Positions 3,545 through 31,913 of a DNA stretch of 31,913 nt are shown piece after piece. Made by a program: the position numbers and the translations under genes. The stretch comes from a virus (Duplodnaviria; Caudoviricetes). How positions within the stretch are numbered: the first letter of the stretch is position 1; each line of letters opens with the position of its first letter. The stretch is taken from IMG/VR virus record IMGVR_UViG_3300017912_002029, positions 1-31,913 of that record. One strand, given 5' to 3'. A model generated the notes under the pieces. That model was not told where the DNA came from. It was given only the letters and a program-made list of their open reading frames with translations, and ran no database searches.

Positions 3545-6500
3545 CTATCTTGTTATGAACTTTAATGTTATGTTACCTCTCATAGTTTGACTTGCACCAG
3601 CATTAGCATGACTAACAGTTGGAACAATAATATCTCCTGCTGTTAAATCTACATCATATGTGGCGCTACCAGAATATGCTCTTCTACTTGTTGTGATAGT
3701 TATAGTTGTAGCAGTACCTGCTAATGCTAAAGTTGTATCACTTGTTGTATCTAAATTAGGTGTGCCATGGTATATAGATAAAGTAACACTTGTAGCAGAA
3801 CTAAAGTTAGTAACTACTGCACTCATTGCTTTTAATGTACAATCTTCTGGCACAACATATTGTCCAGGTACATCTAAATAACTAAACCCTGTTGGATCTG
3901 TATCATAATCATCCCATAATGCAAAACTATTTACACCATCATCTACATCTCTATAATAATATCTACCTGCTACACCACTAGAAACTATAAAAGGAAATCT
4001 TTCCCATACTACTGCGCCTGCTATTATACCATTATCACCTTCAACAGATAAATCTTTTATAACATGTACATCGCCACCATAATCTTGTCTGTCAATTTTT
4101 AATAGCTGAGTAATATTATCTCTTATTTCAAAAAACCCTGCACTTGCTGCTGTACCACCTGCAATTTGTAAATTCCAAGCAGCATTATCATTAAGAAGAG
4201 CAAATGTTCCTGTTCTTGTTGCTCCTCCACCAGTTCCTGTTGCTTGAGCAGTTACTGTAGTATTTGATGCATCTGAAGCTAAAATATTACCTGCTACTTG
4301 CAATGGTGAAGTAGGACTTGAAGTACCTATTCCTACATTACCACTAGAACCTTCTACAAACATATCATCATTTATATTTATATCTACATCGCCACCATCA
4401 CCTAATTTTACATAGTCTTGTGAACCATCTTCATATAAATCTAATAAAACCTCACCACCTGCCGACATTCTAATTCTATCAGTAGTAAATTGTAAATATG
4501 TATTACCATCTCCATTATGATTTATTAAATGGTCTACACCTATATCTCCTGCTACATCTAGTTCATAATTAGGACTTGTAGTACCTATACCTACTCTTGC
4601 ATTTGACATATCAAAATTTAACACATCTGTATTATCACTTCTTCTAAATCTTATATCATTAGCAGTATCACTTGTTTTAAAATAGAATATTTCGCCACTT
4701 TGACCCATTTGTAACATATCTGTTCCACTATCATCACTAAATGATGCTTGTGGAAATGATGTTTTATAAAAACGTACTTGGTCTTGAAATCTTGCAGTAT
4801 TAGCCACATCTAAACCATAACTAGGACTTGTAGTACCTATACCTACATTGCCTGTATCGCCTTCTACCACCAAAGTATTAGTATTAATTGCAAAATCATT
4901 ACCTGAACTTGTTCCTGTAGTTACAGCAATAGAACCTGAACTTTTTAATCCTTTAGCAAGAGTAAGATTATCACTTAATGTTTCATCAATAGTTGGTAAA
5001 CTTGTTTCAAAAGTTATTGTCCAATCACCTTTATAATCATCTATGTCTGAAGCATAACCTACTTGAACATTTCTAACTGTTACCTGCATATAATTCCAAG
5101 ATGTAGTTGTTTCGCCAATTAATACACAATGGTTACTTGAATCGTGTCCAAATCTTACTGTATAATTATTTTGTTCTAAATTTCCAAATATTTGTGCCGA
5201 TACATTATGCCACTCATTAGAGCCTACATCTTGATATACATAACCTGCTATATATGTAGTAAATGCTTGATTAGTTCCATAGTCAAATACATCTACCCAA
5301 AAACTTATCATATCTGCAGGATTAGAGCCTGTACCACGAGGAACTGTAATTTTAATTGCTCCTGTATGAGTGTTGCTTGATGTTCTATACATACCACCTG
5401 CAGGTTGAATAATACTACCACCATTACCTATAGCGCTATTTTCTATAAATATTCCACCTTCACCACGAAGCATTAAATCACCTGATAAATCTACTTGTCC
5501 ATCACCATCTATTGCTAAACGAGATGTGTTATCAAGTTTAATATCTAATGTATCATCGCCTATTGTAATTTGATTATAAGAAGTATCATTATAATCTCTA
5601 CGAAGCACTAAATCTTCATCATAAGATGATACATATCCACCATCTACTGCAATATTATTACTAAAATAAAATTGACTTCTATCAGTTCTTATGTGTGCCC
5701 AACTTGAACTTTCTGCACCTATTCTAACATGTCCATAATTTGAAAATATTTTTAAAACATTTGCTTCCTCTCCAAGTCTAACTGTACCATCTGCTCCAGG
5801 GTCTGAAGGTGCTCCTGTTAATTCTATATAACCACCAGGAGTTACATCTCCACCTACAGTTAAATCATTACCTATTGATATATCTTGACTTGAATCTTCT
5901 ACTAATATTTTATTCCAAGTAGCAAAAGAAGTATTAACAGTAGTTGCACCTAAATACGCTTTCCAAGGTTCATTATAAACAAACGCTAATCCACCCCAGC
6001 CACCACCAGAGTCTCTATTTGCAACTTTGTGAAAATAAAAGTATTTACTATCTAAAGGCATACCTTCATCTGTGCCTAAACTTTGATGCATCATAGCGTG
6101 ATACCCAACAGGTAAATCAGCATATTCTTGTTCTGTATTTGTAGCACTATCTAATCCTGTACTGCCTGTTGCACCTATATTAGTTGCCTCTATACTAGTT
6201 AATACTGCATCTCTTGCAGCTATATCTACACCATCTACTGTTCCTGTTACTGCTATATTACCACTTACATCTAATGCTTCAGCAGGACTTGTAGTACCAA
6301 TACCTACATTACCTGCATTTATAAAATTATCTGTTCCATCTGTATATAATGCTATTTTTTCAACACCACCATCGTACATATGAAACCTACCACCATCAGT
6401 AGATTTTTCTGCTATCTTTACAATAGCATTAGTATTACCATTTGCTTGTACTGTAAATGCACTATTGCCTGAACTTGAACTATTAGATTTTATTGTTAGT

Positions 6501-8512
6501 GGACTTGTAGGACTTGTAGTTCCTATACCTACTCTATTGTTAGTAGAATCAACGTGTAATGTATCTGTGTCTACTGTTAAATCTCCATCTACTGTTAAAT
6601 CCCCCAAAAATCTAGCATTACCTGATGTGTTTATTTCAAATCTATTAGCAGTTCCAGTTTCATCTCTTATAATAAACTTATCTGAATTACCACCATCTAC
6701 TCTTATATCCCAATTTTGAGCATCATTTTCAAGCCTTACATATGCTACACCATTAGTATTAGCACTTTGTATTCTTGCTCTTGCATTACCACTATTCTTT
6801 TTAATATGAAATTCAGCACCAGAATTGTTTACATCTCCAACACTAAGATTACCATCTATATTAGTATTGCCTGTTACTGCTAAAGCAGAACCAAGTGTTG
6901 TATCACCTGTAACATTAGCAGTACCTGTTACTTTTAATTTATAACCACCTGCACTTGTACTACCTATTGCTACATTGTTACTACTATTATTAAAATAAGT
7001 ATCAGATGAACCTGCTGATACAAGTTTAACATTAACGCCATTAGATGTTCCAGCATATAACTGAAAAAACTGGTCTATATCGGAACCTTTTAATCTTGCA
7101 ATAGGTTGGTATTGATTAGAATCAGGGTTTGTATCATCACTATTTCTTGCCCATTCGTGCTGCACACCCCATCTTGCTGTCCAATAAGTAGTTCTATTAG
7201 TACCAGGAGTACCATCATCTACAATAATATTCATTCCATTATTACCTGTAGAGCCTAATCTTAAAACATTTTGCCAACCAGAACCTGATGGAACATAAGC
7301 ACCATTTCCTGGATGAACAGCATCACTTGCAGTTATTTGTAGGTGTCCTGTCATATCTCCACCTGCTAATGGTAGTTTTGTTGCTAAACTATTAGTAACT
7401 GTAGTAGCAAAGTTAGCATCATCACCAAGTGCAGCAGCAAGTTCGTTAAGTGTATCTAGTGCAGCAGGTGCAGAATCTACTAGAGCATCTATTTTAACTT
7501 GTGCTAAAGCATTTACCTCGCTGTCAAAGTCTGTAACTTGATTATGAGTTATTTCTATATTATTAGCATGTATATTTGTAGCACCTTGGTCAACAGTCCA
7601 GTCTATTATTTCATCTGCTGCTATACCAAGATCAGATAAAACTTCAGAACCTGTTCTATATTTTACAGTTCCACTATCACTAACTAAGAATTTATCTGTA
7701 TCTGTTGTAGCATTAGCAATATAGTTTACAACAAGTTCATTTGGTATATCATTTGTTCTACCAATAGCACTTACAAGCATTCCTTGTATTTGTCCTGCTG
7801 GTGTATTTGCTTTAATTACAATACCTACATTTTGTATTAAACAATCTGGTGCAGTAGGTTTAGTAAGTGTTAAACCAGCTGTATCTGAAACATATACTAT
7901 ATCACCTTCAGTTACACCTGAAAATCCACTAAGGTTTTTATTATATACGCCTGATGCAACAGCATAGTTATCCTTAGTACCTGTAGTATTCATTTCTTCA
8001 TAAGCAATACCAATACAAGGCATTTTAGCCGAATCATTAGCATCGCATATACCAACTAATATTCTTTCACTACCACCTATTTCACCTTTACTATATAGTG
8101 GAGCTCCTGCAGGTATAGTACTACCTTCATCATTTCTAACCTGTATTCTTGTTTGTTCAGTAGGAGCTAAATGATCATTAAAGGTTATTTGAATTAAATC
8201 ATTATTATCATTAACAAAATATATATCACCATTAATAACTTGTACATCTAATAAGTCTTTTAATTTATTAACTAAAGCTGAAGCTGGAGTTTTTTCATTA
8301 CCCTTTAAATTTTGGTTTGAGTTTAAAGAAATATTATACCATTTATTTTTATACTTTATAAATAACTTTATTCCACTAGATAAATTAGATATATGAATTG
8401 ATCCATCATTACCTTCTTTTTTAGATGGAACATTATTACTAGTTGTTACTCTAGGCTGTTTGCTGTTATTAAGTATATTATATATTTCATTTGCAGTTTT
8501 ATTATTTAACAT
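3545..8512 (-). CDS. Long tail fibre / receptor-binding protein (~1655 aa)
   Basis: Likely start ATG 8512 (GAGGA RBS) rather than 8542. Contains the fibre motif DSAPAALDTLNELAAALGDDANFATTV, five (N/R)VGIGT(T/S)SP repeats and Gly/Thr/Asn/Asp-rich beta-type sequence. Confidence 0.85.
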   Translation of the reverse strand: MLNNKTANEIYNILNNSKQPRVTTSNNVPSKKEGNDGSIHISNLSSGIKLFIKYKNKWYNISLNSNQNLKGNEKTPASALVNKLKDLLDVQVINGDIYFVNDNNDLIQITFNDHLAPTEQTRIQVRNDEGSTIPAGAPLYSKGEIGGSERILVGICDANDSAKMPCIGIAYEEMNTTGTKDNYAVASGVYNKNLSGFSGVTEGDIVYVSDTAGLTLTKPTAPDCLIQNVGIVIKANTPAGQIQGMLVSAIGRTNDIPNELVVNYIANATTDTDKFLVSDSGTVKYRTGSEVLSDLGIAADEIIDWTVDQGATNIHANNIEITHNQVTDFDSEVNALAQVKIDALVDSAPAALDTLNELAAALGDDANFATTVTNSLATKLPLAGGDMTGHLQITASDAVHPGNGAYVPSGSGWQNVLRLGSTGNNGMNIIVDDGTPGTNRTTYWTARWGVQHEWARNSDDTNPDSNQYQPIARLKGSDIDQFFQLYAGTSNGVNVKLVSAGSSDTYFNNSSNNVAIGSTSAGGYKLKVTGTANVTGDTTLGSALAVTGNTNIDGNLSVGDVNNSGAEFHIKKNSGNARARIQSANTNGVAYVRLENDAQNWDIRVDGGNSDKFIIRDETGTANRFEINTSGNARFLGDLTVDGDLTVDTDTLHVDSTNNRVGIGTTSPTSPLTIKSNSSSSGNSAFTVQANGNTNAIVKIAEKSTDGGRFHMYDGGVEKIALYTDGTDNFINAGNVGIGTTSPAEALDVSGNIAVTGTVDGVDIAARDAVLTSIEATNIGATGSTGLDSATNTEQEYADLPVGYHAMMHQSLGTDEGMPLDSKYFYFHKVANRDSGGGWGGLAFVYNEPWKAYLGATTVNTSFATWNKILVEDSSQDISIGNDLTVGGDVTPGGYIELTGAPSDPGADGTVRLGEEANVLKIFSNYGHVRIGAESSSWAHIRTDRSQFYFSNNIAVDGGYVSSYDEDLVLRRDYNDTSYNQITIGDDTLDIKLDNTSRLAIDGDGQVDLSGDLMLRGEGGIFIENSAIGNGGSIIQPAGGMYRTSSNTHTGAIKITVPRGTGSNPADMISFWVDVFDYGTNQAFTTYIAGYVYQDVGSNEWHNVSAQIFGNLEQNNYTVRFGHDSSNHCVLIGETTTSWNYMQVTVRNVQVGYASDIDDYKGDWTITFETSLPTIDETLSDNLTLAKGLKSSGSIAVTTGTSSGNDFAINTNTLVVEGDTGNVGIGTTSPSYGLDVANTARFQDQVRFYKTSFPQASFSDDSGTDMLQMGQSGEIFYFKTSDTANDIRFRRSDNTDVLNFDMSNARVGIGTTSPNYELDVAGDIGVDHLINHNGDGNTYLQFTTDRIRMSAGGEVLLDLYEDGSQDYVKLGDGGDVDININDDMFVEGSSGNVGIGTSSPTSPLQVAGNILASDASNTTVTAQATGTGGGATRTGTFALLNDNAAWNLQIAGGTAASAGFFEIRDNITQLLKIDRQDYGGDVHVIKDLSVEGDNGIIAGAVVWERFPFIVSSGVAGRYYYRDVDDGVNSFALWDDYDTDPTGFSYLDVPGQYVVPEDCTLKAMSAVVTNFSSATSVTLSIYHGTPNLDTTSDTTLALAGTATTITITTSRRAYSGSATYDVDLTAGDIIVPTVSHANAGASQTMRGNITLKFITR
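4313..6532 (-). repeat. Dispersed coding repeats (VGIGTTSP units) in the fibre gene
   Basis: Copies at about 4313, 4571, 4823, 6284 and 6509; those at 4571 and 4823 are identical over 24 nt (aggacttgtagtacctatacctac). Confidence 0.85.
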
Positions 8513-11500
8513 TCTTTCCTCTATATACAATATTAATATCATTAATAGAAAAATTACTAGGAACTTCTAAAAAACTATAACTTTCTGCAGTCATATCAGA
8601 AGAAGGATCGTTTATAAGAGAAACAGTTTCAATATCAAAATGTTTTAAATTAAATCCAGAAGGACAAATTCCAACTTGAATTGATAGTGCATTTTTTAGA
8701 TAATTCTCAGGATCATCAAATTGAATTTCTGCAACTTTAGATGAAAATGGATTAGATATATCAGAGCCAAAATCAACTAAAAAACCTCCAGATTGAAAGA
8801 AACTTTCTATTTCACCAGGGTTTAAATTAGAATCAACAGTAATATCTGATATTTCAGGATTTTGTATAATTCCATAATTTTTGCATTTTGAAGTATCTGG
8901 AAATAATAACTTTACACCTTTTTTAGTAGTTACAATAACAAATACTCTTGCATTAGCTATAGAACTTGCTATGTATGTAATGTATAATTTATAAATTCGT
9001 TTATTTCTTGATGCTTCTCCAAAATCTATATCTTTAGTTAAAACAAAAAAGTTACCAGAAGATTGAGGATTTCTATTTAAAAGTTGCATATTACTTTCTG
9101 GTATATAAGCATAATGATCTTCATTAGTCACAACAACTTTAGGAGTATTAGATAATGGATTACTACTTCTTAAATCATAATATAATCTAGAAAAATTAGG
9201 TATATTACCTCCTTGAGATTGAATAACTTGCCCATCTCCAAAGGCTGAAGATAATTCTAAATGAGTTCCTAAATTAGCTTTAACCCTATAATTTCCATCA
9301 AAATAATTGTTTTTATTTAATAAATGCCCATCAGTAATATTTCTTCTTTCTTTTTCAAATACAGTATTCCAATTTAAATCAGTTAAATTACCAACATTAT
9401 TTAAAAAATTAATAACAGTAGTGTCATCATCAATTGTTGATGCTGTATTTCTTATTTCATTAATTATTGCGCTAGTAACATCAATTCCTGTAGCATCATT
9501 ATATATCTTTAAATTTTCTTTATGTATACCTACACCTACATCTGTTCTTTTAGTTAATTTAAATGAATATGGATAATTTACTCCTTCTTGAATAATAACA
9601 TCATCATCTTCTTCAGTATCAGGAGTTCTTTCTTCTGTAGGTATTTCATCAATTATAAAAGGAGCTTCTGGTCTAACTTGTGTAACTTGCCAATAACCTT
9701 CTAATCCTTCTATTCTATATGTAGTATTATCAAAATTAAAATACAATACATTTTCATTAATTTTTAATATATCATTTATATCTATATGTGGAGCAGAATT
9801 GCCTGCTACAGAATCTGTAAATAAAGATATATTAGTATTAATACTAGTATCAAAAAAAGTAAATTTCTTAAAATTTAAACCATTGTCATTAATATAACTG
9901 CTAGTTAACCCTGTATTTTTAACATTTAATATTCTACCTACAGGAAATGCAGAGCTACTAAAAGTAAATGACTCACCATTTATATCTGTAGGTGATGTGC
10001 TAGATGTTCCTAAATAATGTTTACTACCATTATCATAATCATCTTTATAAAAATATAACCCATTTACATTAGATCCATCTATTTCACTATTAAATACAGA
10101 AAATACTAAATTGCCATTTTCATCATTTGCAAAATTTGAAAATTTACCAGTTACAGGAAATGATTCTTTTAATTTACACCAAGCTTGATTATCTATATGA
10201 TAACTTAATATATAGTTCTCTGGAGAATGTATATACACTGTTCTTTCTACAATATCATATCCTACTATAGGTTTTGATATAGCATCTGCAAAAAGTGATT
10301 TAATAATTTTAGAATCTAATTTGTATTGAGATACATCTTGAACAGTTTCACCATTAAATATATAAGCTCCTAATTCATTTATCCAAAATACTTCTTTATC
10401 AGTTTTAACAACATGATATGGTTTTTCTACACCTTTAAATTTATATGTTCCAGCAACTACAGGAGCAATCTGATCAGTATTTACATTTAATATATATAAC
10501 ACATCTTTTTTATATTGTAATAAATAACTACCTAAAGATTCTAAATGTACTATTTCATCACCATCATTTATTGCTACATCTAAATAATTTTCAGGATTTA
10601 ATATATCATATTGACGTGCAGGAGATACTATAATTCTATCACCATATTTAGTTCCTCTAGTTAAATCTTCAAATGAAGCATCTTGAACTTCTGATTTAGT
10701 TTCATCCCAATTTACAGGATAACATACATTACCAACATATCTTACTCCATTTATTTCTGTTGAACATTTATACAAAACATTTGTTATATCTCCACCTTCA
10801 TAAGTTGTACCTGAAGGAGGACTGTTAAATAACCATGCATTACCAGAATTTCTAACTGTAGATAAATCTATTCTATGTGAGTTATTTATATTAACTTCTG
10901 TATCATCACTTTTAGAAGAAACTCTATAATGTGATTTTAGTACATTAGATGCATTACCATAATTAACAGGACACCAAGGCATGTAAGATCCACCATCTCT
11001 TTTAATACCATTATTTTCATCAAAAGATGCTGTAAGTAACACAAATTTTTGATTATCATTATCTTCACTAGAAGAGTAATATATTTTACACCCTGTTACT
11101 CTTGGATTTATATATAATTCTTTATTTCTTTCTGTTTCTGTTGTTGTACTTTCAGTATTTGTTAAATAATCAGTTGTTGTTCTTTGCCCTGCATCATCAT
11201 TCATTCCTGTCCATTTAATAGATAAATTGCAATATAATTTAGCTTTTTTAGCAAGTATATTAGAATTAAGTGGAGTTATATCAACAAGAGAAGATTCTTG
11301 AAAATCAGAGTCTGTATCTCCATCATATAACAATGAAGCATAAAATCTATATTTAAATCCATCTAACCATGCTAACTCATCTTGATCAGTTTGTTCAACA
11401 AATTCATACATAAATTGTATGCCATCAAATTCTTGAGACCAGTTATTTATTCCATCTGTTGCAAGACCCCAACCATATGTTGAATCTGAAGCATTAGTTT

Positions 11501-12644
11501 CACCAGTAAAATCACCTGCTGGTTCACCAGGAGTTGTAGTTTCATACATATTATCTGCATCATCAGATTCTGTAAAATCTAAAGCTATAACCTGACAATT
11601 ATAATCTTTGTGACTTAAATTCTGTTCATTTAATGATGGATAATAACCATAATTAAAAGGACTATAAACTTGATTAGATGTTGAATTTCTCCAAACAAGA
11701 CGTACATTATCACCATTTGAATGTGATGTTGCTGTAGAACCATAAACTGCTCTAACTACAGTTAATTGATTTACAGATATACTTTCTATAAATATTAACT
11801 CATCATTTATTAATATTATATCTCCTTTTTGAAACTCTGATGCATCAGCAATATCAATAGTAGTTGTAGAAGAATCGCTACCTCCGCTTTCTGTAGTTTT
11901 AATTGTATTATCTTGCCAATTAGTATCTTGTATTCTATTAAATAATTCTGCTTGTATTGATGTAGGAGCTTTACACTCTGCATGTGTATATAGCCATGCG
12001 CTTTCTTTATTCCATGATGGAGTATCTGTAGAATCATAATTAACGTTATCTTTACCAATAAATTTAGTTTTCTTTACTACACCAAACCATTTATTAGTCA
12101 TACCAAATTGTTTAAAATTTGAATCCCATATTCTAATACTGTTATTTTTACTTACAAAATTAGAATGTACAGGAGCTTTAATATAATCTTCATCTTCATA
12201 CAATGGTAAAACATTTGTTAAAGCAGTCCATTGTTCACTTTGACTTTCTCTTAAAGCTATTCCTGCTTTACTTCCAGTGTTAGTATCTACAGGGTCAAAT
12301 AATTTAGCAATCACATTTACAGAAGTTTCACTACCTAAATTAGAATATACGTTTTTACCAATTGTATCTGACCCATGAAGATATGTACCACCTTTTAAAC
12401 CTTCTTCATTAACAATATCATAATCACTTCTAAAGAAAAACAATCCCCAACCATCTTCTTTGATTTCAATTTTATCAACTTCTTCAATATAATTGGTTGC
12501 TCCTCCAGAAAGTTTAATTTGTCCAATAGTGTCAATATTTACATTAGAAAGATTAGGAGATTGATTATCTTCTATATCTCTAGGACTAACATAATTATTT
12601 AAACCACCTTCAAATCTATCTATTTTTAATGAAGTTTTTGGCAT
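8502..12644 (-). CDS. Tail stabilisation/nozzle protein (P22 gp10 / T7 gp12-like), 1380 aa
   Basis: N-terminal FEGGLN...PRDIEDNQSPNLSNV and C-terminal TKDIDFGEASRNKRIYKLYITY resemble podovirus stabilisation proteins; propeller-like central region; adjacent to the fibre gene. Confidence 0.65.
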   Translation of the reverse strand: MPKTSLKIDRFEGGLNNYVSPRDIEDNQSPNLSNVNIDTIGQIKLSGGATNYIEEVDKIEIKEDGWGLFFFRSDYDIVNEEGLKGGTYLHGSDTIGKNVYSNLGSETSVNVIAKLFDPVDTNTGSKAGIALRESQSEQWTALTNVLPLYEDEDYIKAPVHSNFVSKNNSIRIWDSNFKQFGMTNKWFGVVKKTKFIGKDNVNYDSTDTPSWNKESAWLYTHAECKAPTSIQAELFNRIQDTNWQDNTIKTTESGGSDSSTTTIDIADASEFQKGDIILINDELIFIESISVNQLTVVRAVYGSTATSHSNGDNVRLVWRNSTSNQVYSPFNYGYYPSLNEQNLSHKDYNCQVIALDFTESDDADNMYETTTPGEPAGDFTGETNASDSTYGWGLATDGINNWSQEFDGIQFMYEFVEQTDQDELAWLDGFKYRFYASLLYDGDTDSDFQESSLVDITPLNSNILAKKAKLYCNLSIKWTGMNDDAGQRTTTDYLTNTESTTTETERNKELYINPRVTGCKIYYSSSEDNDNQKFVLLTASFDENNGIKRDGGSYMPWCPVNYGNASNVLKSHYRVSSKSDDTEVNINNSHRIDLSTVRNSGNAWLFNSPPSGTTYEGGDITNVLYKCSTEINGVRYVGNVCYPVNWDETKSEVQDASFEDLTRGTKYGDRIIVSPARQYDILNPENYLDVAINDGDEIVHLESLGSYLLQYKKDVLYILNVNTDQIAPVVAGTYKFKGVEKPYHVVKTDKEVFWINELGAYIFNGETVQDVSQYKLDSKIIKSLFADAISKPIVGYDIVERTVYIHSPENYILSYHIDNQAWCKLKESFPVTGKFSNFANDENGNLVFSVFNSEIDGSNVNGLYFYKDDYDNGSKHYLGTSSTSPTDINGESFTFSSSAFPVGRILNVKNTGLTSSYINDNGLNFKKFTFFDTSINTNISLFTDSVAGNSAPHIDINDILKINENVLYFNFDNTTYRIEGLEGYWQVTQVRPEAPFIIDEIPTEERTPDTEEDDDVIIQEGVNYPYSFKLTKRTDVGVGIHKENLKIYNDATGIDVTSAIINEIRNTASTIDDDTTVINFLNNVGNLTDLNWNTVFEKERRNITDGHLLNKNNYFDGNYRVKANLGTHLELSSAFGDGQVIQSQGGNIPNFSRLYYDLRSSNPLSNTPKVVVTNEDHYAYIPESNMQLLNRNPQSSGNFFVLTKDIDFGEASRNKRIYKLYITYIASSIANARVFVIVTTKKGVKLLFPDTSKCKNYGIIQNPEISDITVDSNLNPGEIESFFQSGGFLVDFGSDISNPFSSKVAEIQFDDPENYLKNALSIQVGICPSGFNLKHFDIETVSLINDPSSDMTAESYSFLEVPSNFSINDINIVYRGKNVK

Positions 12645-26943: not shown

Positions 26944-27120
26944 TTATTTTTCAGTTTTATTCTTTTTTTCTACAAATTTCTCAAATTCTTCTGAATGTTT
27001 GTTAAATTCAATATATAAAGTATTAACCTTTATTAATCTTTCAACTAAAAAATACAATTGATTTAAATGATGTTCTATCTGTTTGTTAGTTAATTTAGGT
27101 TTATTTTTACCTTTAGCCAT
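26944..27120 (-). CDS. Small hypothetical protein (58 aa), first gene of the leftward module
   Basis: Not in track. MAKGKNKPKLTNKQIEHHLNQLYFLVERLIKVNTLYIEFNKHSEEFEKFVEKKNKTEK; G-run RBS. Confidence 0.7.
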   Translation of the reverse strand: MAKGKNKPKLTNKQIEHHLNQLYFLVERLIKVNTLYIEFNKHSEEFEKFVEKKNKTEK

Positions 27121-27149
27121 TTAAAGCCCCCCCTTTTATTTTGCAATAT

Positions 27150-27179
27150 AATTTACAAAAAGTTAAGTTTGAAAAGCAA
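27150..27179 (-). promoter_or_regulatory. Sigma70-like promoter at the head of the leftward module
   Basis: Minus strand TTGCTT-N18-TAAATT. Confidence 0.5.
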
Positions 27180-27322
27180 CTTTTAAAAATTGTGCAATTT
27201 TAGTGTGCGGTGTTGTATATATGGTACACCCCCTATCAGGGGTTTTTCCCTAACGGGATTACGTTATTTTTGATTTTAGTTAATGTAATTTATGATTATT
27301 TTATTAATTAAAAGGAGAACAA

Positions 27323-28718: not shown

Positions 28719-28740
28719 AAAATAATTGGTAGGAGAGAAG

Positions 28741-28839
28741 ACCTGTAGGAGTAGACAAGGCTCAAAACAGCTACAGGTTAACATAACACCCATCATCGAT
28801 AGTACTACACTTAGGGCTTCGGCCTGTTGGTGGGTGTTA
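28741..28839 (+). ncRNA. Candidate structured RNA/leader (two stem-loops)
   Basis: ACCTGTAG/CTACAGGT (28741-48/28771-78); TAACACCCATCA/TGGTGGGTGTTA (28784-95/28828-39) enclosing a C(UUCG)G hairpin. Confidence 0.6.
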
Positions 28840-28859
28840 AATTTTAAAAGGAGAATAAT

Positions 28860-30323: not shown

Positions 30324-30542
30324 ATGGCAACTAAAACTATAAAATTCCTACAAGGTGGCGGCTTTGTAGAGAGACAAACTAACGCTGACACTGTTGAGCA
30401 ATTAAGAGCAGAGTTTCCAGATGATATTACTTCTAATGCATCTGTTGCTGTTAATGGTGTATCTGTAACTAATGCTCACGCTATTGCTGAAGGTGATATT
30501 GTTGCAGCTGTTAATAATAATAAATCTGGCGGTGATCAGTAA
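30324..30542 (+). CDS. Ubiquitin-like (ThiS/MoaD-type beta-grasp) protein with C-terminal GG plus a 2-residue extension
   Basis: 72 aa; TVEQLR helix, VAVNG, IAEGDIV and terminal KSGG-DQ reproduce the TV.EL...vNG...l.eGD.v...GG pattern; AGGAGG RBS. Confidence 0.85.
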   Translation: MATKTIKFLQGGGFVERQTNADTVEQLRAEFPDDITSNASVAVNGVSVTNAHAIAEGDIVAAVNNNKSGGDQ

Positions 30543-30558
30543 TTATTAATTTATAACT

Positions 30559-30637
30559 TATAGGGCTGTAGTGACAGGCGAGTCAATCAAGCGGGGCTGT
30601 AATCCTGTGAGACTAACGAGGGTCAATCAGCCCTATA
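30559..30637 (+). ncRNA. Candidate structured RNA between the Ubl and E2-like genes
   Basis: Perfect 10-bp outer stem TATAGGGCTG/CAGCCCTATA with nested TGAC/GTCA, AGTC/GACT and GCGGG/CCTGT helices. Confidence 0.65.
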
Positions 30638-30656: not shown

Positions 30657-31913
30657 ATGTCAAATTATAATAATTATGATTTAATTGTAGAATCAACAGA
30701 CATTAATGATGTAATTGATTCTATAGAAACAGAAGATCTTGGTGATCACATATATTTCGGTCCCCAAGCAGATATTATGGAAAGACTAAATAGATTTAAT
30801 ACTAATTATCATGCAGATTTAGAAATTACTAAAACATTTAAATGGAAACGTGGTACATATGATAAAGTAGCAAATTTAATGATGAAAGGTTTAGGATTTA
30901 AACGTAAACCTAGTGGTATGTATAACTTTTTATCACGTGAAGACTATTTTAGAAGAAATCGTTGGGATTGGATACAAACTGAACTAAGAGAAATGGATAA
31001 TATGATAGCTCATTTGCGTTATTATAATGAAGAATGGCTAGATGATCCTAGTGTTCTTGTAGAATACAAAGATACATTTAAAAATTATTTATCAGAACAA
31101 GCAGAAAAAGCAGCACCAGTAGCATATGGAATAGATATGTATGATTCAGTATGGTATAGATTATATGCACATCCTAGTAGCAGGTCAAATCAAAGATACA
31201 TGTTAAATACAGCAATTACATTTTCACCACCAGCTATTAAAGTGTATAGTAGTGCAAATACAAGAGCTGAAACAGAAGCTACACATGTTGCTGATATACC
31301 ATGTGATATGCAGGTTGAATTAAATCTAATAAGCTATCCAATTAAAGATATGATAACAAATAAACTTAGTTATACTAGACCAAAGTTTAATGTATATAAC
31401 TATGGTATTGTTTATCCTTTTGATAATAGAGGTAGACTAAGGTTCCCTTATATATCTGGAAATCATTACAGAGATAGTGGTAATATATTTGGTAATAGTG
31501 TATGTTGGGGTGATGATGCAACAAATGTGAGTAATGCTATGGGTAGATATGACTTAACATCCTTGTTAATTCAAATACCTAACTGGGCTACTAGATATAC
31601 TAATAATACTAATCCATATCACAATATTAAACAAGCATATCATGGTGAGCCAAAACTAATAAATGATGATTTTAGAGCTATATTTGGCACTAGTTCACCA
31701 GATGAGTGTTTTTATAGTCCATCAGGTGAAGATGATTACTGTGATACAGCAGAATGTGCACTTAGATCTAGATGTAGTAGGTATAAAGATGCATATCCTG
31801 AACCAGTATCACCAGAACAAGCTGAGCAATTAACGCTTCAATGGGCTACTAGAATGGGTGGTATTAATACATCAACAGGTAATATTCATGGTGGTGAACA
31901 AGAACCTGTTGAC
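30657..31913 (+). CDS. Putative E2 (ubiquitin-conjugating)-like protein with a C-terminal Cys cluster; runs off the right edge (>=419 aa)
   Basis: Not in track. GGAGG RBS, ATG 30657, open to the window end. Contains RFPYISG...NSVCWGD...YDLTSLLIQIPNWATRYT..TNPY and C351-x10-C362-x4-C367-x5-C373. The CDS is certain; the E2 call is inference. Confidence 0.65.
   Translation, partial: MSNYNNYDLIVESTDINDVIDSIETEDLGDHIYFGPQADIMERLNRFNTNYHADLEITKTFKWKRGTYDKVANLMMKGLGFKRKPSGMYNFLSREDYFRRNRWDWIQTELREMDNMIAHLRYYNEEWLDDPSVLVEYKDTFKNYLSEQAEKAAPVAYGIDMYDSVWYRLYAHPSSRSNQRYMLNTAITFSPPAIKVYSSANTRAETEATHVADIPCDMQVELNLISYPIKDMITNKLSYTRPKFNVYNYGIVYPFDNRGRLRFPYISGNHYRDSGNIFGNSVCWGDDATNVSNAMGRYDLTSLLIQIPNWATRYTNNTNPYHNIKQAYHGEPKLINDDFRAIFGTSSPDECFYSPSGEDDYCDTAECALRSRCSRYKDAYPEPVSPEQAEQLTLQWATRMGGINTSTGNIHGGEQEPVD

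Follow-up and report, generated by a model that had tools for sequence, protein, structure and literature searches.

A phage E2-like protein with an invariant cysteine lies in a putative ubiquitin-like conjugation cassette

Results

The predicted active site of the E2-like protein

The window analysed here is one entire contig of 31,913 bases (IMG/VR virus record IMGVR_UViG_3300017912_002029; estimated completeness of the virus record, 58%). An open reading frame (ORF) at its 3´ end codes for an E2-like protein, which is probably the E2 of a phage-encoded ubiquitin-like protein (Ubl) conjugation system that transfers the Ubl to lysines without an E3, in steps resembling those of the bacterial Bil system. 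In relatives, the genes follow one another in the order Ubl, E2-like protein, JAB peptidase, E1, and the catalytic residues are intact in all four. An E2-like active site had been proposed in a first-pass annotation of the window; it is upheld by the invariance of Cys283, by a predicted UBC topology and by the position of the gene between those of the Ubl and of JAB and E1.

30657-31913, + strand: E2-like ORF, 419 codons, 3´ end open at the contig end

The ORF is open at its 3´ end because the contig stops there; relatives at 96-98% identity have a full-length E2-like protein of 432 amino acids. A GGAGG motif is located 7-11 nucleotides (nt) upstream of the ATG.

Conservation was assessed in two sets of relatives. 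The close set comprises 56 aligned homologues with 41-91% identity to the query, of which 55 cover the active site and one is a fragment. The distant set was drawn from 1.84 billion cluster representatives by a profile search, in which 401 proteins (clusters at 50% identity) were retrieved at E <= 0.001; its counts rest on the best 150 of the 401, among which 146 were new and the 117 with at least 330 amino acids were kept. These 117 are at 16-26% identity (median 21%), and their counts call for caution because the gathering profile itself includes the active-site motif.

31443-31457, + strand: F263-P-Y-I-S, in the place of the E2 'HPN(I/V)'; HP(Y/F)(I/V) in most distant relatives
31503-31505, + strand: Cys283, predicted catalytic cysteine; 55/55 close, 117/117 distant
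31584-31622, + strand: W310...Y314...T318-N-P320-Y-H322, where the crossover helix ends and the proline loop follows; most distant relatives have T-N-P-L-N

The codon positions were verified (F263, 31443-31445; C283, TGT at 31503-31505; N319, 31611-31613; the Tyr of NPY ends at 31619). Eight residues (P264, S267, C283, G285, D286, W310, Y314 and P320) are each present in 55/55 members of the close set, so the active-site motif is not a chance occurrence. Conservation of Cys283, which had been set beforehand as a test, is complete in both sets, and this residue forms the sole invariant column in a 123-row alignment with a mean column identity of 10%.

The upstream motif varies in a defined manner. 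Position 263 is H in 84 of the 117 distant relatives, F in 28, Y in 3 and N in 2; P264 is retained in 112/117, and position 265 is Y in 89, F in 28 and N in none. Judged from these alignments, FPYI of the window is a subclade form of HP(Y/F)(I/V). The first-pass annotation had correctly placed FPY where E2 proteins have HPN, but this is a variant of the majority HPY, and two further residues of its motif, W284 and N319, are not family features: in the close set, position 284 holds Y in 45 members, F in 8 and W in only 2/55, W is found in 5/117 distant relatives, and N319 occurs in 30/55 close relatives. Downstream of the cysteine, W310 is found in 109/117 and P320 in 116/117 distant relatives, and the two columns after P320 are L in 78/117 and N in 110/117. 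Together these columns give HP-x-I…C-x-G…W…P-L-N as the pattern of the family, which is similar in sequence to the canonical E2 signature; the family's proline loop is likewise similar to the 'P-L-N' loop of E2 proteins.

The spacer preceding the cysteine is long and variable, as had been noted for the window: the P-to-C distance ranges from 14 to 21 among close relatives and from 11 to 64 among distant ones. In the models, Cys283 is placed in a loop between strand 4 and the helices, and the anticipated helix after it is predicted at residues 285-296, followed by another at 300-312. Histidine columns conserved in the close clade are limited to 31, 210 and 329, with H329 kept in 51/54 of the close clade and in fewer than 60% of the distant relatives.

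The predicted fold and the three-part architecture

31038-31655, + strand: residues 128-333, predicted to adopt the UBC/E2 fold, with a long helix, a four-strand meander carrying insertions, the flap, Cys283, a pair of helices and the P-x-N loop
30657-31037, + strand: residues 1-127, the N-terminal region, made up of a single strand and long helices, with conserved G35-P36-Q37, N48, T58 and W63-x2-G66-x-Y68
31707-31775, + strand: four-cysteine module (C351, C362, C367, C373); each Cys in 55/55 of the close set
31812-31862, + strand: C-terminal helix ending WATRMGG, followed by a variable tail; mean frequency of the top residue 0.92

The AlphaFold2 model of the E2-like protein has a mean predicted local distance difference test score (pLDDT) of 80.4 and a predicted TM-score (pTM) of 0.72. 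A helix, a four-strand meander and flanking helices appear in the UBC secondary-structure order in two models. All 23 of the listed structure matches that span the domain are of E2/UEV/RWD type, an assignment that is presumed for part of them. Foldseek against the PDB returned no matches for either the full-length or the domain model, and an entry in BFVD of 420 amino acids was matched at E 4.4e-3; it has the same length as gp54 of Flavobacterium phage Fpv3, to which it may correspond. Profile searches in Pfam, PHROGs, NCBIfam and PADLOC gave no E2 family, nor did shallow and deep profiles against PDB sequences, which upholds the earlier proposal of a new E2 subfamily. A search for short stand-alone forms yielded 12 proteins lacking a Pfam domain, 11 of which are known family members or fragments. 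In one locus (L005, 8001-9406), a short internal duplication splits the E2-like gene; the locus contains ambiguous bases, and the split is probably an assembly artefact.

The E2-like protein has a conserved three-part architecture in which the whole chain is kept, beyond the UBC part. In the N-terminal region, G35 is present in 112/117, P36 in 110/117, N48 in 114/117 and G66 in 115/117 distant relatives. The region, suggested in the first-pass annotation to select substrates, is a candidate partner- or substrate-binding part. The four-cysteine module and the conserved C-terminal helix go beyond the features seen in the first-pass annotation. All four module cysteines occur in 105/117 distant relatives, the last three being spaced x4/x5 in 67/105 and x2/x5 in 21/105. 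Because the four cysteines are kept in 55/55 close and 105/117 distant relatives, the module likely forms a metal site that binds zinc or an iron–sulfur cluster; model confidence is low for residues 363-368. No segment is more conserved in the close set than the WATRMGG helix, and the tail that follows it is 30-131 amino acids long (53 sequences). W396 is found in 84/117 distant relatives; the GG is present in 54/55 close relatives but is much weaker in the distant set. This end with its variable tail (31842-31862) mirrors the SGG-DQ end of the Ubl. Going by this motif, WATRMGG could be a second JAB cleavage site, which would make the E2 itself taggable.

The conserved gene cassette

30324-30542, + strand: Ubl, beta-grasp, 72 amino acids, ending NNKSGG-DQ; Pfam ThiS, E 0.0017, under the curated cut-off

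Gene order was surveyed in 73 loci (27 viral and 46 metagenomic, with contigs partly shared between the two). Where at least 450 nt of sequence precede the E2-like gene, a Ubl gene is present upstream in 46/46 loci; a single locus with 447 nt and no Ubl match was excluded by this cut-off. JAB and then E1 lie downstream in 29/29 loci with at least 3500 nt of room. In 8 of these 29, a radical SAM gene resembling spore photoproduct lyase is located between the E2-like gene and JAB (for example L011, 7318-8184; Pfam SPL, E 4e-21). The Ubl ends in NNKSGGDQ in 40/40 distinct relatives and is probably made as a precursor for trimming by the JAB peptidase. Catalytic residues of JAB and E1 are invariant wherever they are covered. 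E1 of the relatives consists of 217 amino acids with a single ThiF domain, contains cysteines at 22, 123, 168 and 176 only (C168 in 24/24), and has ThiF/MoeB as its best NCBIfam matches. ERF recombinase and primase-helicase genes come next after the cassette. The layout extends to a relative of 22% identity, the one of two distant proteins for which a locus was retrieved; there, a Ubl ending KTGG-K is followed by two small genes, an E2 with HPYIS, JAB and E1. Because relatives add the activating (E1) and trimming (JAB) genes to the Ubl and E2-like genes, the viruses likely run their own protein-tagging system.

Comparison with known systems

Bil is a bacterial anti-phage ubiquitination system with BilABCD types I and II (PMC10557695, PMC11601596). 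Both sets share the order Ubl-E2-JAB-E1, a Ubl with extra residues past the Gly, cysteines in E1 and E2, and the lack of an E3 gene. They differ in that Bil is host-encoded and acts against phages, whereas the present cassette is carried by a phage, on a contig that also codes for terminase, portal and capsid proteins. E1 is a single 217-residue ThiF domain here, in contrast to the IAD-AAD-CYS arrangement with a four-Cys zinc site in Bil. The E2-like protein exceeds 430 amino acids with its N-terminal domain and four-cysteine module, lacks a conserved His soon after the Cys (C138/H151 in BilB), and has no PADLOC match. The cassette thus appears to work like Bil, yet it is not a member of Bil, given its single-domain E1, the missing post-Cys His and its phage origin.

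The first-pass annotation had linked the 'CWG' at Cys283 to Prok-E2 family D (PRTRC protein B; PF14460; class 6d in PMC1779556). Family D does share a stand-alone E2-like gene that accompanies Ubl, JAB and a ThiF-type E1 on a mobile element, and PF14460 occurs in 14-39% of the members of the ESM Atlas named clusters nearest to the domain (scores 0.88-0.89), which serves as a lead only. PF14460 and the PRTRC NCBIfam models did not match the window protein or any of 90 distant relatives, and PF14460 matched none of five whole records at E <= 10. In family 6d the classical His is absent and a downstream His is absolutely conserved (PMC1779556), whereas here 84/117 relatives have a His at the classical position and H329 is frequent in close relatives only. 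The protein is also about twice as long. By profile and histidine pattern, then, the E2-like protein is not a family D member. As a family-D signature 'CWG' was ruled out, given the rarity of W284 (2/55 close, 5/117 distant).

Compared with eukaryotic UBC/E2 proteins (UbcH5, Ube2W, UBE2S, UFC1, UBE2O), HPY/HPF/FPY replaces HPN, the spacer to the Cys is longer and highly variable, strands carry insertions, and identity in structural alignments is 4-12%. The Bub system (6E/DUF6527; PMC11601596) is likewise a set of diverged E1, E2, Ubl and JAB carried by mobile DNA; its E1 and E2 are described as lacking catalytic cysteines and using Tyr/Ser oxyesters, and its genes as fused, in contrast to the invariant E1 C168, E2 C283 and separate genes found here.

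E1 of the cassette matches 77 phage records, mostly of Bacteroides crAss-like and Flavobacterium phages. Five E1-matching loci were compared (L060-L064; crAss001 is L060, 3232-7642). In crAss001 (gp79-gp76), DAC15 (gp91-gp88), Flavobacterium phage Fpv3 (gp55-gp52) and two uncultured relatives, the same four-gene layout lies beside replication genes. The first gene codes for an N-terminal domain ending K-x-x-S-G in 5/5, and the second for 373-444 amino acids with an invariant H-S-H…C-x-G in 5/5; a JAB-like gene (Pfam Prok-JAB in 2/2 scanned) and ThiF complete the set. Unlike the Ubl of the window, the Ubl candidates there have long C-terminal tails. Four profile comparisons (hhalign) of the second gene with the E2-like protein were not significant; in one of them the score (9.5) fell short of the mean for shuffles (13.0). 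The deep E2-like profile matched 0/5 of these records. Only gene order and motif likeness tie the crAss001 gp78 group to the E2-like protein. The ThiF gene of these cassettes is mostly labelled 'thiamine biosynthesis protein', a label that is probably misleading.

A literature search, with supplements outside its scope and papers covered in part, did not find a phage-encoded E1-E2-JAB-Ubl set described. The terms JAB, Ubl and ThiF are absent from the available portion of PMC7824862, and none of six looked-up terms is present in that of PMC7886860. In the corresponding part of PMC1779556, phage Ubl-JAB pairs are mentioned solely in connection with tail assembly.

Hairpin modules in the spacers

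30559-30637, + strand: stem-closed hairpin module in the Ubl-E2 spacer, 10-bp closing stem

The 114-nt Ubl-E2 spacer has a minimum free energy of -32.6 kcal/mol (z -2.5). Across 40 distinct relatives (L006-L103), the spacer contains one to three stem-closed modules, which belong to few types in varied combinations and are sometimes nested. The module type of the window has near-invariant arms around 23 distinct hypervariable inserts of 26-121 nt. Insert ends pair in 62/92 cases compared with 41.9 +/- 3.3 in shuffles, a covariation counted over related and hence not independent sequences. This type occurs once in each of 23 viral contigs, either in the Ubl-E2 spacer or in a hairpin cluster 1.3-1.8 kb upstream. 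The window has a second cluster at 28740-28845, composed of two tandem long hairpins; relatives have clusters of up to three hairpins at a similar upstream site, sometimes with the window's spacer module type. Rfam gave no match for the spacer hairpins, which are possibly processed small RNAs or shuffled regulatory cassettes.

Genome setting

Two relatives of the window are complete, each about 56 kb. The minus arm of the window codes for terminase subunits, a P22-like portal, an SU10-type capsid protein, a GH108 lysozyme and tail proteins (Pfam, PHROGs). The GC skew reverses near 27 kb, at the start of the plus arm of small genes; the flip, at about 27000-27300, coincides with AT-rich intergenic DNA that separates the divergent virion and early arms. 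On the minus strand, 3545-12644 contains two very long ORFs (1665 and 1380 amino acids); the former has short tail-fibre PHROG matches, and neither has a Pfam match. A search of the 185,579 species genomes of GTDB found close relatives of neither the E2-like protein nor E1. Cultured phages searched by tblastn gave no match to the E2-like protein or JAB.

Discussion

On the predicted fold and by analogy with Bil, we infer each chemical step, the roles of the N-terminal domain and the metal module, and the targets of the E2-like protein. JAB would remove DQ and expose the C-terminal Gly of the Ubl, and the 217-residue ThiF-type E1 would adenylate the Ubl and bind it as a thioester on Cys168. The Ubl would then move to Cys283 of the E2, which would hand it to lysines of target proteins; JAB could undo the linkage. 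Since no E3 gene was recognised in the cassette, recognition of targets or partners would fall to the conserved N-terminal domain and the four-cysteine module of the same chain. The cassette is located in the arm opposite the virion genes, just ahead of the recombination and primase-helicase genes, and therefore probably targets host or phage replication proteins at an early stage of infection.

An E2-type carrier might instead join the Ubl to an acceptor other than a protein lysine, for example a lipid, a hydroxyl group, a small molecule or the end of a nucleic acid. Residues that assist lysine attack in classical E2s are changed or missing (Asn in 0/117; F for H in the window's clade), the cassette adjoins DNA recombination and replication genes, and the C-x2-C-x5-C arrangement of 21/105 relatives is the spacing of iron–sulfur 'staples' in DNA-processing enzymes. 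We nonetheless regard such an acceptor as unlikely: nothing points to any specific non-protein acceptor, and characterised bacterial systems with the same gene set are described as forming Ubl-lysine isopeptides without an E3 (PMC10557695, PMC11601596). That the protein is a non-catalytic RWD/UEV-like adaptor, or merely resembles UBC domains, with a structural Cys283, is very unlikely. No residue of the family other than Cys283 is invariant; Cys283 is kept above the four module cysteines (105/117), which already form a complete module, and the models place it in the loop after strand 4, ahead of the helices. The operon E1 moreover retains its cysteine, and the operon contains no other E2 candidate.

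The small single ThiF domain of E1, with ThiF/MoeB as its best NCBIfam matches, and ThiS as the only notable Pfam match of the Ubl could also suggest a sulfur relay, in which E1 would convert the Ubl to a thiocarboxylate and a persulfide on Cys283 would serve to thio-modify nucleotides or proteins; some bacteria are described as using sets of JAB, Ubl and E1 for sulfur transfer (PMC1779556). This is quite unlikely, since no sulfur-donor or -insertion gene was recognised in the neighbouring ORFs scanned (not all ORFs were scanned), the partner protein combines a predicted UBC topology with an HP motif, and E1 keeps a Cys at the presumed thioester position (C168, 24/24). On the same grounds a thiamine role for E1 was rejected as the principal interpretation.

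With lysine transfer by an E2 as the preferred reading, a broader picture can be put forward tentatively. The protein may represent a large, undescribed, three-part E2 family (401 clusters) with which phages run their own reversible Ubl tagging of host proteins early in infection, an E2 with a built-in substrate receptor and a metal-bound module replacing the E3. This would be a mirror image of host Bil and CBASS, and gut crAss-like phages would carry a parallel cassette labelled 'thiamine biosynthesis'. The family is large at E <= 0.001 and unannotated in Pfam, NCBIfam, PHROGs and PADLOC. The similar cassette in the cultured phages crAss001 and DAC15 makes the question testable in real infection, and the four cassette genes are small enough for reconstitution in E. 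coli. Characterised bacterial E1-E2-Ubl systems are described as host-encoded, Bil as anti-phage and Bub as suspected to be so (PMC10557695, PMC11601596). If the present reading is true, a complete and strongly conserved version in the phage early region would mean that bacterial viruses use Ubl conjugation for their own ends.
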